A stretch of 64,000 bases of DNA, from assembly GCA_963660615.1 (NCBI GenBank), contig CAVKYE010000001.1, forward strand, positions 69,954-133,953, in the 5' to 3' direction. The notes below the pieces were generated by a model that saw nothing but the letters and a program-made list of their open reading frames with translations, was not told the origin of the DNA and did no database searches. Position numbers and translations under genes: made by a program. Positions 16,983-21,390 of the stretch are shown in pieces. The stretch is from Vescimonas coprocola. Its GTDB lineage: Bacteria > Bacillota_I > Bacilli_A > RF39 > UBA660. Numbering within the stretch: position 1 is the first letter of the stretch; every line of letters starts with the position of its first letter.

Positions 16983-17228
16983 CTAGGATGCTTGCATGGT
17001 AGCTCCATAATCAACATTTGTCAAATCATCTTTTTCATTTAATAAGTATTCGTTTCTTATTTTTTTTAGTCTTCCCATAATAGAATTTTCCATTTCATTA
17101 TATGTTCTTAAATCAATAACTTTTTCATCGTATAATTCTTTATTAACAATTAGTCTATATTCCAACAACTTATATTCAAAAGGTAATTGTTTTGTACTAA
17201 ATCTAACTTCTATATCTTTTTCTAGCAT
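16983..17228 (-). CDS. small conserved protein immediately upstream of recombinase 1; candidate recombination directionality factor/regulator
   Basis: 81 aa; the LEYRLIVNKELYDEKVIDLRTYNEMENSIMGRLKKIRNE segment is paralogous to the 52-aa ORF 21232..21390 upstream of recombinase 2 (LEYELIINKKLYDQGVITERQYDEVCKIIYEKINR). Confidence 0.5.
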   Translation of the reverse strand: MLEKDIEVRFSTKQLPFEYKLLEYRLIVNKELYDEKVIDLRTYNEMENSIMGRLKKIRNEYLLNEKDDLTNVDYGATMQAS

Positions 17229-17448
17229 TTAGATTTACCTCCAACTAATTTTATTCAAGGCGAAATAAAATTATACAAAAAAACCAACAACTTGGTTTTT
17301 TAGAAAATGCTATTTAAATTTTTATTCTGTTTTATTTATTACTAATACTTATCTTTATTTTTTCTCTAATAAATTTCATTAATTCTTAAAGAATATCAAT
17401 TATTTAAAACCATTGATAATTTAAATTGAATTCACTTATTTTTACAGA

Positions 17449-18300
17449 CTACGCTCCAACTAATTCAGACTCTAGTAATTCAATTACTTGTTTTATAGCA
17501 TTAATTGTATCTTCAAATTCTACATTTTTTGCATAAGTAAGTTTCTTACTATAATTATTAAATAATTCTTTTAATACAACACTATCTTTTATAATTTCAA
17601 ATATATCATTTAAATATTCTATATTAAAATTCGTATTTCTATGTTTAAATGTTCTTTTTATTGCTTTAATAAGTATATTCTTATCTATTTTATCTATATG
17701 ATTATTTACTATTACATACATATCGTAAAAGTCCTTTGCTCTTGTAGTAGTTATATTTTTACTAATAATACTTTCAAATTTTTCAGCAATTATAGTTTCA
17801 ATTGTATATGCCATAATATTAATAGTTTTATCTTCAAAAATAGAATTATATTTATACTTTATTTCTCTTGGTGTAATTATATCTCCTGTTGTTACTTCTA
17901 TAAAGAAATGTGTTTTTAATTTATCAAATTCTCCATAAACATTTATTCTATATCCACCGTATTCATCTTCTAATCTAATGTCCTTAATATTTTCGATTTT
18001 AAAAATAAAACTATCATTTATATCAATTGATAATATTTCTTCAAAAATATTTCTAATAGATTCTTCATTTAGTGAAATGCTTTTTAAGGTAGCGTCTATA
18101 TCTTTTGTAGTTCTCATATCACTTCCAATAATTGAAGAAAGTAATACTCCACCTTTTAGAATAATGTTATCTTTATACTTACTTTTTTCTAATCTCATTA
18201 ATACATGTTCAAAGAAAAACATTTGATGAAGATGTAGTGATACATCATTACTTTTTTTAGCACGATTTTTAATAAGTGCATTAATTTTATCACTATTCAT
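17449..18300 (-). CDS. abiEii: AbiEii/AbiGii-family nucleotidyltransferase toxin (type IV TA / abortive infection)
   Basis: 283 aa; N-terminal ...SLHLHQMFFFEHVLMRLEKSKYKDNIILKGGVLL...TKDIDAT matches the AbiEii/DUF1814 nucleotidyltransferase pattern. Overlaps by 1 nt the upstream AbiEi-like gene. Confidence 0.65.
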   Translation of the reverse strand: MNSDKINALIKNRAKKSNDVSLHLHQMFFFEHVLMRLEKSKYKDNIILKGGVLLSSIIGSDMRTTKDIDATLKSISLNEESIRNIFEEILSIDINDSFIFKIENIKDIRLEDEYGGYRINVYGEFDKLKTHFFIEVTTGDIITPREIKYKYNSIFEDKTINIMAYTIETIIAEKFESIISKNITTTRAKDFYDMYVIVNNHIDKIDKNILIKAIKRTFKHRNTNFNIEYLNDIFEIIKDSVVLKELFNNYSKKLTYAKNVEFEDTINAIKQVIELLESELVGA

Positions 18301-18902
18301 TATAAAATCACCTGCATAATTTCTGCCACTTCTTTTTCAATGTTTAATTTTTTTGAATATTTAGCAAGTTTTAACATATCCTTTTCTTTTCTTTCAGCAT
18401 ACCATTTTAAAGCTTTAGTATAGATTTCTTTATCCATGTGATTTTTGTCTTTAATAATATCACAAATAGTCCTTTCAACGTCATAACATTTAATATCCAT
18501 ACCAAATGGAGATTTAATGGTTTCCATTCCTAAGTTCAAAAGATTATTATCAACATAATGAAGTGATACAACATCTATATTTTGTAATGGTCCACCATAA
18601 CCACGAGGTACAGTGATATCAAAATACAGTGGTGTTCTATCTGATAATTCATGTAAGAATAAAGATGTAGTATAAGAAAATACAGCATTTTTGCTTTTAG
18701 AAATAATCTTATAATAATCATCATTAATCACATCAGGTAATGAATAATATCCGGTCGATACTCTTTCTAGTAATCCACCATCAACTAACCTTTTTAATGC
18801 CATTTTATTTAGTTTATTATCTACTACTTCTTTTGTAGTAATATATCCATCATTTTTTTTCACTAATTGCAAAATTTTTTCTAAATCACTCATGTGCAAC
18901 AC
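18300..18902 (-). CDS. abiEi: AbiEi-family antitoxin/transcriptional regulator
   Basis: 200 aa; N-terminal winged-helix (LEKILQLVKKNDGYITTKEVVDNKLNKMALKRLVDGGLLERVSTGYYSL) typical of AbiEi. Genetic pairing with an AbiEii-like gene. Confidence 0.65.
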   Translation of the reverse strand: MLHMSDLEKILQLVKKNDGYITTKEVVDNKLNKMALKRLVDGGLLERVSTGYYSLPDVINDDYYKIISKSKNAVFSYTTSLFLHELSDRTPLYFDITVPRGYGGPLQNIDVVSLHYVDNNLLNLGMETIKSPFGMDIKCYDVERTICDIIKDKNHMDKEIYTKALKWYAERKEKDMLKLAKYSKKLNIEKEVAEIMQVIL

Positions 18903-19250
18903 CTCTTGTGTTAATTATACAACAGTTAATTATAAAAGAGAATAGTCTTTGTTACTTTTTTAATTATTTTTTTAATATTTTAATTGCAAAAGTAACATAT
19001 TTTATACAAAGTAGTATAATTCTATAAACTAATTTTTTATTTACTGGGGTGTACTTAGATATTTCATAACTTTTAATTATATAATTTTAATATTCTCTTC
19101 ACTATACAATTTATTGTATCTACACAACAGTTCATAATTAATTCTACCAACAACAAACGATGTAGAACAAACATCAATCTTGGCACTATATTTTATACTA
19201 TTTGCAAGGGTTTCTGCAAATTCAAAAGTGTTCCTGTATTTACTCCAAGA

Positions 19251-19419: not shown

Positions 19420-19489
19420 AAGTAACCCCCGAAAACGATACCTGAATAAAACAAAAAAAGACTAGATTACCATATAAATATATGATAAC

Positions 19490-21220
19490 CTAAGGGGTGT
19501 CGTAACTTAAATATACATTTATTTTAAAACTATTTCTTTGAAAATCAGATCTTCCTAGATCTAATGTTTCAATATCTTTACTAAATATAGGTAGTGATTT
19601 ATCATCATCTATATGTCTAGCACCTTTTCCAGTAGGAACTTTCTTTTTCAATAAATTCAGATAAATTTTTAGCATTAATTTATGTCTATCATTGTCCTCC
19701 TTATAGACTATAATTTCCTCCAAAAACTTATCTACAAATTCACTAACATTATTTTTAAAGGAGGCTTGTTTTTTGATAGCATCTTCAATTACCTTAATAT
19801 TACCAAAACTATCAGACATAATCTTTCTTTCTTGCTTTATTTTCTCAACCCTTATATTTAAAGCTGATATATCTTCATTATATCTATCATTTCTTTCTTT
19901 AAATTCAAGGTTATTAATGCTACCATCAATATTTAATTCTAATAACTTTTCTTTTTTTGTTTCAATAGTTTTAATTTCATTTTTTAATTTTGAAATTTCA
20001 AGTTGATAATTGTTATCTATTTTTAAATTAGAATAATAATCTAACATTTCTTTTATAATTTCATTTTTATTATTAAATACTTGACCCATTAAACTCACAA
20101 AAATATTATTCAAATCCATTTCTGCAATTATTGGACTTTCACAAGCATCTAGTCTATATTTTACATAATTACCACAAGCCCATCTAGGCTTTGTTTGTTT
20201 TCTTTTACTTGACATTCTCTGATAAGAAACATTGTGTTCGCCGCAAAATATTTTTGTAGTATAACAATATTTTCTTTCGGCTCTTTTGGCATTACCATTA
20301 CTTACTTTCATTAGTGTACTTCTGCTATCTAATATCTCATTTGCACGATTCCATAATTCTTCACTAACTATGGCTGGTACTTTTTCATCTTTATATATTA
20401 CTTGCTGTTCTATTGGTATATAAACTCTCTTTTTCGTTCTATAATCGATAATTTCAGTAGTATGTCCACGGTAAAAACCTTTATATTTAGGATTCTGCAC
20501 GATTCTTTTTAATGTATCCTTATCATAAATATTTCCTTTATAATTATTTATACCTTGTCTGTGTAATTCCATTGCTAATTTATAAAAGCCATATTTACCA
20601 GTAGCATATAATTCAAAAATTTTTCTTATTTTTTTTGCTTCTTCTTCTACAATTACTAATTTAGCATCGTCTTTTTTATAACCAGTAATTGTATTAGAAC
20701 CTAAAACTCTACCTTTTTTTATTGCTTCTTTATGTCCCCATTTAACACGAGAAGAAAGTCTTTTAACTTCTTCTTGAGCAACACTTCCCATCATATTAAG
20801 TATAAACTCTGAGTTAGGATCATAAGTATTTATTCCATTTGATTGAAAATATACACCAACATCATTAGCAAGTAATTCTTGCGTATATTTGATACTATCA
20901 GATAAATTTCTAGAAAATCTAGAAACTTCTTTTGTAACTATTAAATCAAAATAACCAGATTTAGCATCATCAATCATTTGTAAAAATTTTTTTCTTCTTT
21001 TAACAGTACTACCACTAATACCTTCATCTATGTAACCATTAACATAAGTCCAATTTTTATTTGACTTTATAAAATTTTCAAAGAAAGATATTTGGTTATC
21101 TAAAGAGTTTAATTGTTCATCACTTTCGGTAGAAACACGAGCATAAAAAGTAACTCTTAAAGGTAAATCAGAAATACTTTTTCCTTTTAAGATTTCTTCT
21201 CTGACTTTATAGAATCTCAT
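19490..21220 (-). CDS. large serine recombinase (paralog of 15196..16950)
   Basis: N-terminus VTFYARVSTESDEQLNSLDNQISFFENF; overall colinear with recombinase 1. 576 aa. Stop lies ~70 nt from the spoVD middle segment. Confidence 0.85.
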   Translation of the reverse strand: MRFYKVREEILKGKSISDLPLRVTFYARVSTESDEQLNSLDNQISFFENFIKSNKNWTYVNGYIDEGISGSTVKRRKKFLQMIDDAKSGYFDLIVTKEVSRFSRNLSDSIKYTQELLANDVGVYFQSNGINTYDPNSEFILNMMGSVAQEEVKRLSSRVKWGHKEAIKKGRVLGSNTITGYKKDDAKLVIVEEEAKKIRKIFELYATGKYGFYKLAMELHRQGINNYKGNIYDKDTLKRIVQNPKYKGFYRGHTTEIIDYRTKKRVYIPIEQQVIYKDEKVPAIVSEELWNRANEILDSRSTLMKVSNGNAKRAERKYCYTTKIFCGEHNVSYQRMSSKRKQTKPRWACGNYVKYRLDACESPIIAEMDLNNIFVSLMGQVFNNKNEIIKEMLDYYSNLKIDNNYQLEISKLKNEIKTIETKKEKLLELNIDGSINNLEFKERNDRYNEDISALNIRVEKIKQERKIMSDSFGNIKVIEDAIKKQASFKNNVSEFVDKFLEEIIVYKEDNDRHKLMLKIYLNLLKKKVPTGKGARHIDDDKSLPIFSKDIETLDLGRSDFQRNSFKINVYLSYDTP

Positions 21221-21231
21221 AATCTACCTCC

Positions 21232-21390
21232 TTAACAACTTTTTACCTCTTTACTACAACGATTAATTTTCTCATAAATAATTTTACAAACTTCATCATA
21301 TTGCCTTTCAGTAATTACCCCTTGATCATATAATTTTTTATTTATTATTAGTTCATATTCAAGGATAGTTATTCTTTGAGTTTTATACAA
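21232..21390 (-). CDS. small conserved ORF (52 aa) upstream of and translationally coupled to recombinase 2; candidate RDF/regulator
   Basis: TTG start with GGAGGTG 7 nt upstream. Its stop TAA is followed by GGAGGTAGATT then the recombinase ATG. Paralogous to 16983..17228. Below the ORF-track size cutoff. Confidence 0.45.
   Translation of the reverse strand: MYKTQRITILEYELIINKKLYDQGVITERQYDEVCKIIYEKINRCSKEVKSC

Follow-up and report, generated by a model that had tools for sequence, protein, structure and literature searches.

In a 64,000-nucleotide stretch of the Vescimonas coprocola genome (GenBank assembly GCA_963660615.1, contig CAVKYE010000001.1, positions 69,954 to 133,953; hereafter the window), the gene spoVD is split into three fragments by two inserted elements, here called A and B. 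Each element encodes a large serine recombinase (LSR) and, immediately upstream of it, a small open reading frame (mini-ORF), namely ORF52 before LSR2 in element A and ORF81 before LSR1 in element B. Here, we analyze these two mini-ORFs, their relatives and their possible role as recombination directionality factors. The window has a G+C content of 26%, and the genes of the region all lie on the minus strand. In the direction of transcription, the locus contains the following features.

22972..23861, minus strand: spoVD fragment 1, amino acids 1-296, ending ..YEPGSTF inside the active-site motif
19419..22971 (ends ± a few nt), minus strand: element A, ~3.55 kb, inserted in the STFK codons of spoVD, with imperfect inverted-repeat ends; gene order ASCH-like gene, Fic gene, ORF52, LSR2
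21232..21390, minus strand: ORF52, mini-ORF of 52 aa with a TTG start, partner of LSR2; predicted helical hairpin with helices 2-22 and 28-51
19490..21220, minus strand: LSR2, large serine recombinase, starting 11 nt past the ORF52 stop
19249..19418, minus strand: spoVD fragment 2, 57 codons, amino acids 297-353, KIITLAAALEEG...VENSCN, between the two elements
15245..19248 (ends ± 2 nt), minus strand: element B, ~4.0 kb, inserted after the Asn codon of spoVD SCN, with imperfect inverted-repeat ends; gene order AbiEi, AbiEii, ORF81, LSR1
16983..17228, minus strand: ORF81, mini-ORF of 81 aa, partner of LSR1; predicted helical hairpin with helices 17-34 and 40-70 and disordered ends
15196..16941, minus strand: LSR1, large serine recombinase, with its likely ATG at 16941
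14388..15244, minus strand: spoVD fragment 3, amino acids 354-638, PGFVILGQKLG... to the PASTA domain; mraY and spoVE/ftsW come next downstream

The original prediction held that the ORFs at 16983..17228 and 21232..21390 are paralogous and share a block beginning LEY.LI.NK.LYD. Both ORFs are present at these positions, and BLASTP aligned them without gaps over 40 residues, 17 of which are identical (43%) and 26 positive (65%), with an E value of 2e-9; the block common to the two, LEY.LI.NK.LYD..VI..R.Y.E, was found as stated. The further claim that each lies directly 5' of a same-strand recombinase was also borne out, as both downstream genes encode large serine recombinases. ORF81 has a GGAGGT Shine-Dalgarno sequence 8 nt 5' of its ATG, and ORF52 a GGAGGTG sequence 7 nt 5' of its TTG start. 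The proposed translational coupling holds for ORF52, whose junction with the recombinase reads TAA-GGAGGTAGATT-ATG(LSR2), with a ribosome-binding site within the 11 nt between stop and start. It is an incomplete description of ORF81, whose TAG lies 41 nt 5' of the likely LSR1 start, whose partner has its own AAAGGAAG ribosome-binding site and whose relatives often hold a sigma-70-like promoter in the 3' tail.

LSR1 and LSR2 are 41% identical to each other and share the domain series Resolvase, Recombinase and Zn_ribbon_recom; among curated recombinase models, CcrB and CcrC come nearest, both far below cut-off. The LSR1 frame crosses attR, the junction of the integrated element with its host, such that the last 16 codons (15196..15244, minus strand) are host spoVD DNA. 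The C-terminus of this recombinase therefore differs between the integrated and the excised state, and from host to host (569-584 aa in relatives).

We then considered whether the mini-ORFs are genuine genes. Human-gut metagenomes contain hundreds of near-identical homologues of ORF81, and for ORF52 there are ~60 homologues at 70-96% identity; none of these is named or carries a Pfam domain. A profile search of 1.84 billion representative proteins returned 113 clusters at E ≤ 0.001, nearly all of them stand-alone proteins of 40-83 aa, and across members only ~20% identical a core of roughly h-E-h-x-h-I-h-N-x-x-L-Y-x-x-x-h-I-x-x-x-x-Y/F is kept. Since a single profile made from both ORFs recovered homologues at the same position in dozens of unrelated contigs, the similarity between ORF81 and ORF52 is not a matter of chance. 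In codon alignments, the median dN/dS was 0.24 for the ORF52 type and 0.28 for the ORF81 type, and third codon positions varied most. AlphaFold modeled both proteins as two-helix hairpins, with a predicted local distance difference test score (pLDDT) above 90 over residues 21-60 of ORF81 and a mean of 92.9 for ORF52. Judged by their sequences, ORF81 and ORF52 are real, conserved, expressed-looking genes under purifying selection. The median net charge of the family is zero, and with values so close to neutrality nothing suggests a DNA-binding protein.

The mini-proteins had been put forward as new family members, and they showed no detectable relation to SprB or to Pfam, NCBIfam, PHROGs or PDB sequences. 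The homology and structure check proposed for both ORFs gave confident helical-hairpin models, without a significant match among PDB sequences or in Foldseek. The only signal in the sequence searches was a sub-threshold match to SHOCT, seen with ORF52 at 16.8 and 17.1 bits versus gathering cut-offs of 27 and 24 (PF09851 and PF20612); ORF81 gave no match. In Foldseek, no PDB entry scored better than E = 2, which is unsurprising for a bare hairpin, and a Listeria integrase coiled coil came up only among these non-significant matches (E 2.8). No helix-turn-helix or winged-helix domain of the Xis or MerR type was matched in Pfam, NCBIfam or PHROGs, and the models are two-helix hairpins instead. 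Homology to SprB was ruled out by aligning the family with SprB of SPbeta (hhalign probability 0.2%). The idea that the mini-ORFs are a copy of the LSR coiled coil, which arose from an L..L...G.I...EF motif, was likewise dropped (hhalign probability 4.8%, with the match lying outside the coiled coil). When 50,697 phage genomes were searched by tblastn, no real match to the family was obtained, so it does not look phage-borne. An Rfam scan of the region returned nothing.

To quantify the association with recombinases, we collected 80 loci from reference genomes, picked only by LSR similarity with the LSR1 and LSR2 alignment as the query, and searched all of their ORFs with the mini-ORF profile; 71 LSR genes had at least 350 nt of upstream DNA. 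Conservation in homologous elements, on which the original prediction had staked itself, was clear: 61 of the 71 are directly preceded by a family member in the same orientation, at a distance of -60 to +140 nt. In a further six, a member was found 320-2600 nt upstream, and four had none. Thus, the same element encodes both a mini-ORF and an LSR in elements A and B and in 67/71 related ones. Adjacency was seen in 14 of 17 LSR clusters (70% identity) and persisted down to LSRs that share no more than 39-50% identity with the query. P0334 and P0330, two remote members recovered by the profile alone, also proved to lie directly upstream of LSRs. Pairwise identities among the mini-ORFs tracked those among their LSRs (r = 0.92). 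The gap between the two genes is 27-90 nt in ORF81-type modules, and in several relatives the ORFs overlap by 1 to 23 nt. Together, these results define a new, unannotated family of 40-100-aa proteins that is tightly bound to serine recombinases.

How far this pair behaves as a unit was examined by comparing the window with contigs carrying a 94-99% identical ORF81. DNA identity to the window was 93-98% for ORF81, 98-100% for the spacer between ORF81 and LSR1 and 94-99% for LSR1, versus 56-79% for the host spoVD C-terminal fragment and 65-69% for mraY. The block of similarity runs from 16 nt upstream of the ORF81 start to attR, and the cargo upstream of it is unrelated between elements. Beside the ORF81-type module lie AbiE genes in the window and, elsewhere, NUDIX, kinase and methyltransferase genes or conjugation genes; conjugative elements that end in a mini-ORF/LSR module encode a coupling protein, a relaxase-like protein, an M23 peptidase and a methylase. 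The mini-ORF and the LSR are the only unit common to elements with different cargo. A module of such high identity amid unrelated cargo and diverged host genes indicates that mini-ORF and LSR are a two-gene cassette exchanged between elements, and that the elements spread between species. This two-gene cassette is the strongest argument for placing the mini-protein within the recombination machinery.

More distant mini-ORF/recombinase modules were also seen in insertions within feoB, a ferrous-iron transporter gene (L052, L070, L080, L087, L088), so the module family is not confined to sporulation genes. Stacked elements occur in L097 (9288..13286) and in L024 and L082, with two modules each. 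In L097, a conjugative element at SxN is followed by ~195 bp of spoVD and then by an AbiEi/AbiEii element at a third hot spot. The AbiE genes of this last element are 89% identical to the cargo of element B, a likeness which implies that cargo moves between elements with different recombinases. A conserved ATGTCTAA block upstream of ORF81-type genes, entertained as an operator, was discarded, as it is where a conserved gene for a conjugative coupling protein has its stop codon.

At the level of the host gene, in-silico excision of both elements yielded an uninterrupted class B penicillin-binding protein of 638 aa with the STFK, SCN and KTGT motifs. This rejoined protein scored 741.7 bits with the SpoVD equivalog model (NCBIfam TIGR02214) and so passed its cut-off of 688. 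The predicted junctions of the rejoined gene are ..TCTTGTAAC/CCAGGC.. and ..ACATTY/AAAATAATT... Empty B sites in related genomes read AAY CCN GGN TTT (SCNPGF), which places the crossover of site B at the AA of the Asn codon. The inverted-repeat ends of both elements agree with what the paired half-sites of a serine-integrase attP should look like. In related genomes, spoVD is recurrently interrupted at amino acids ~296 (STFK), ~353 (SCN) and ~417 (FGQGxxxTP); each of the three sites is also empty in other species, and the recombinase module may stand at either end of the element. These relatives of the locus come from uncultured gut Bacilli with ~1.3-Mb genomes, including Candidatus Coprovivens, Faecimonas and Faecisoma (order RF39). 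In JGI metagenomes, excised-circle (attP) junctions of LSR1-type elements numbered 0, a count that carries no weight because the integrated junction (attR) itself had only eight matches there. RF39 has been predicted to be able to sporulate, yet spoVD was reported to be reduced or absent (PMC10868615); a split spoVD that escapes orthology calls may explain that report. No description of spoVD-interrupting elements, or of spoVD in at least three pieces, turned up in the searchable literature. Beyond spoVD and the spoVE/ftsW-like gene, a search of the window for further sporulation genes, which would have confirmed a spore-forming host, found none.

A second host gene of the window, encoding a D-Ala-D-Ala carboxypeptidase, is split as well (41378..41806 and 63017..63664, minus strand), and its Peptidase_S11 and PBP5_C domains rejoin at NTNK|LVRF. 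The insert of ~21 kb carries polysaccharide and radical-SAM genes, and a third serine recombinase (61287..62717) adjoins the N-terminal fragment. A 34-aa ORF with a strong ribosome-binding site (62737..62841, minus strand) ends 19 nt upstream of this recombinase. Its sequence shows no relation to the ORF81/ORF52 family and matches nothing in Pfam; with this ORF, a mini-ORF precedes all three recombinases of the window.

Around the two family members, we looked for signals that might govern their expression, and two sites are of particular concern here.

16996..17024, minus strand: sigma-70-like promoter, TTGACA-17 nt-TACCAT, in the ORF81 3' tail, flagged by a promoter scan
21397..21418, minus strand: 9-bp hairpin, ACACTTCCA-TTAG-TGGAGGTGT, followed by a T-run; the 3' arm is the ORF52 Shine-Dalgarno sequence

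Among 28 unique ORF81-type modules, 17 carry the series TTGACA, exactly 17 variable nucleotides and TA(A/C/T)(C/T)AT in the mini-ORF 3' tail, and the motif is kept in one relative in which that stretch is non-coding. Inside the motif, Leu is encoded by TTG, a rare choice that accounts for 12% of Leu codons in window genes, and the protein tail encoded over the promoter is predicted to be disordered. From this internal promoter, LSR1 could be transcribed without the mini-ORF, and from further upstream both could be transcribed together. A search for an internal promoter for LSR2 within ORF52 gave nothing convincing. All ORF52-type modules keep the hairpin, two of them with compensatory changes, and it is the sole terminator-like site on the minus strand in the region; its 5' arm overlaps a (C)ATACACT box. 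It could both end the cargo operon (the ASCH-like and Fic genes) and silence ORF52 on read-through transcripts. Boxes of the form CATA(C/A)A.T lie close upstream of the ribosome-binding site in most relatives and resemble the -10 element of mother-cell sigma factors. No convincing -35 element was found for them, and both window boxes deviate in having A for the first C; an assignment to sigma-E or sigma-K was therefore not adopted, and the boxes serve as a lead only.

Two variations on the module were observed in related loci. In seven of these (L018, L017, L021, L023, L025, L007 and L082), an extra ORF of ~48 codons (~150 nt upstream of the ORF52-type gene) sits between the hairpin and that gene, and its TGA stop overlaps the TTG start of the mini-ORF. 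In a sister group at the STFK site (L035 3790..4010, L034, L036-L039 and L092), the element opens with the mini-ORF/recombinase pair at its 5' end. There, the mini-ORF begins at most ~55 nt from the crossover, its frame overlapping the tail of the truncated spoVD frame, and it could be driven from the spoVD promoter.

Taking association, need and precedent together, we propose that ORF81 and ORF52 are putative recombination directionality factors of LSR1 and LSR2, a reading to which we assign a probability of about 50%. The two small helical-hairpin proteins would act as dedicated partners of their recombinases. Each would bind its own recombinase and enable attL × attR recombination, by which the element would be excised and the spoVD frame rejoined; the recombinase alone would bring about integration. 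Sequence signals hint at how the recombinase might be made with or without its partner, namely through the internal promoter in ORF81-type modules and through the hairpin that would hide the mini-ORF ribosome-binding site in ORF52-type modules. That an excision factor is needed is argued by the inverted-repeat ends, together with an in-frame excision that gives a 638-aa protein passing as SpoVD. A fixed synteny of mini-ORF and integrase is unusual among directionality factors.

Several observations weigh against this proposal. Linkage and co-divergence would be expected of any two neighbours that travel as a pair. The operon layout and the tight coupling of ORF52 imply co-expression, which for a true directionality factor would hinder integration, and since the elements are mobile between species, integration does happen. 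The searches revealed no kinship of the mini-proteins, in sequence or fold, with a known directionality factor; this is weak evidence, because the known factors share no motif (PMC12286644). The window DNA upstream of ORF81 is unlike the conserved upstream region of its relatives and looks like an ordinary extended -10 promoter (TGTATAAT, 17270..17277). Finally, the curated models closest to the two recombinases, CcrB and CcrC, represent a group that is not known to need a separate small factor. TnpX, TndX and CcrAB, which serve conjugative or cassette elements, work in both directions and are not known to need such a factor, and the elements described here are of the same non-phage kind.

The main rival, which we consider a possibility though a doubtful one, builds on the latter point. 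It holds that the recombinases are bidirectional by themselves, as are TnpX, TndX and CcrAB, and that the mini-protein is a regulator or modulator rather than the component that sets direction: it might adjust the level or activity of the recombinase, hold the element in its integrated state as an inhibitor, or provide a link to transfer functions. Such a role would suit elements that are conjugative or mobilisable islands and not phages, recombinases whose best curated matches are CcrB and CcrC (below cut-off), an operon and coupling layout that leads to co-expression, and the 4/71 related LSRs that lack any mini-ORF. It fits less well with a pairing that is kept so tightly across LSRs 39-50% identical, with co-diverging mini-proteins, and with the ORF81-type internal promoter, which suggests that expression of the recombinase alone and joint expression are distinct states. 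Moreover, every well-studied large serine integrase with stable attL and attR sites needs a factor (PMC12286644).

Two other explanations were weighed. The mini-ORF might be an expression device, that is, a leader ORF or coupling arrangement that feeds the recombinase start and encodes a functionless peptide. The short distance of 11 nt from the ORF52 stop to the LSR2 start, which includes the ribosome-binding site, and the overlaps of 1 to 23 nt in several relatives are what such a device would look like; the dN/dS of 0.24-0.28, the core motif kept across ~20%-identical members and the confident fold predictions common to both proteins are not. In the ORF81 type, 27-90 nt separate the two genes and the LSR comes with a ribosome-binding site and a promoter of its own, but the peptide is conserved anyway. 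We regard this explanation as very unlikely. Still less probable, in our estimate, is a reading of the ORFs as SHOCT-type oligomerisation modules, or as unrelated small cargo proteins whose genes came to lie beside recombinases by chance. Sub-threshold SHOCT or SHOCT_2 matches were obtained with 9/26 members, and a lipoprotein with six SHOCT-like repeats scores against the mini-ORF family profile. However, the scores reach 17 bits versus cut-offs of 24 and 27, and almost all of the 113 representative clusters consist of stand-alone proteins of 40-83 aa. In addition, cargo varies freely while the mini-ORF is constant, with the high-identity block beginning 16 nt upstream of it.

If ORF81 and ORF52 are directionality factors, a wider picture can be drawn, which as a whole we think improbable. 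In RF39, spoVD would lie in pieces, broken at three hot spots in catalytic motifs (STFK, SxN and FGQGxxxTP) by up to three elements with unrelated cargo, each with its own recombinase and mini-protein, and cortex synthesis would need two or three independent mother-cell excisions, each licensed by a mini-protein. The same switch would let conjugative elements leave the chromosome, and the mini-proteins would form the first directionality-factor family with fixed integrase synteny. Were this true, dozens of ready-made orthogonal sets of integrase, factor and attachment sites would be at hand. It is difficult to identify directionality factors for large serine integrases: those known have no common motif or fold and no consistent position or synteny relative to the integrase (PMC12286644). 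If its function is confirmed, the present family would be easy to harvest, being nearly always encoded by the gene directly upstream of the integrase. Its diverged cognate pairs, with defined attachment sites in a conserved gene, could supply reversible integrase systems for genetic circuits and genome engineering.

Set beside known systems, the elements resemble those of TnpX, TndX and CcrAB in being non-phage serine-recombinase elements. They differ in that these enzymes are not known to need a small partner, whereas the LSRs of the present family are almost always accompanied by one (67/71). In the Xis-Int arrangement of integrative conjugative elements such as Tn916, the integrase gene at the element end is likewise preceded directly by a small gene; however, Xis proteins bind DNA through a winged helix and partner tyrosine integrases, and no such domain was found in the mini-ORFs. 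SHOCT domains (PF09851, PF20612) share the core motif L-Y-D-x-G-x-I-T/D-x-x-x-Y/F and the shape of a helix-turn-helix hairpin, but are typically C-terminal appendages of larger proteins, while the mini-ORFs are stand-alone, tied to recombinases and below the gathering cut-offs.

Closer parallels come from elements that split sporulation genes. SprB of SPbeta, which interrupts spsM in Bacillus subtilis, is a 58-aa factor of the large serine integrase SprA, and the element likewise splits a sporulation-related gene. In that case, however, sprB and sprA lie at opposite ends of a 134-kb prophage, and SprB has no homology to the mini-ORFs; the SPbeta factor is built of helices and strands (PMC12286644), whereas the mini-ORF family is a plain helical hairpin. 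In Bacillus cereus, the 42-aa GirX is needed together with GirC for in vitro excision of gin from gerE, and it inhibits integration (PMC5595907). GirX shares with the mini-proteins its very small size, the lack of a known motif, a location in a non-phage element that splits a sporulation gene and conservation alongside a large serine recombinase (PMC5595907). It differs in setting, as gin has three recombinases and sits in gerE, while here two separate elements occupy spoVD and the module also serves conjugative elements. In Clostridioides difficile, CD1234, a mother-cell-specific, acidic protein of 72 aa without database similarity, binds CD1231 and licenses excision of skin (PMC5025042). Here too a small protein accompanies an element in a mother-cell gene, but the gene for CD1234 lies apart from that for CD1231, under a separate sigma-E/SpoIIID promoter, whereas our mini-ORFs stand immediately upstream of the recombinase. 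GirX and CD1234 are both described as lacking a conserved motif (PMC5595907, PMC5025042). As small factors in elements that interrupt sporulation genes, GirX and CD1234 provide the precedent for reading ORF81 and ORF52 as candidate directionality factors.

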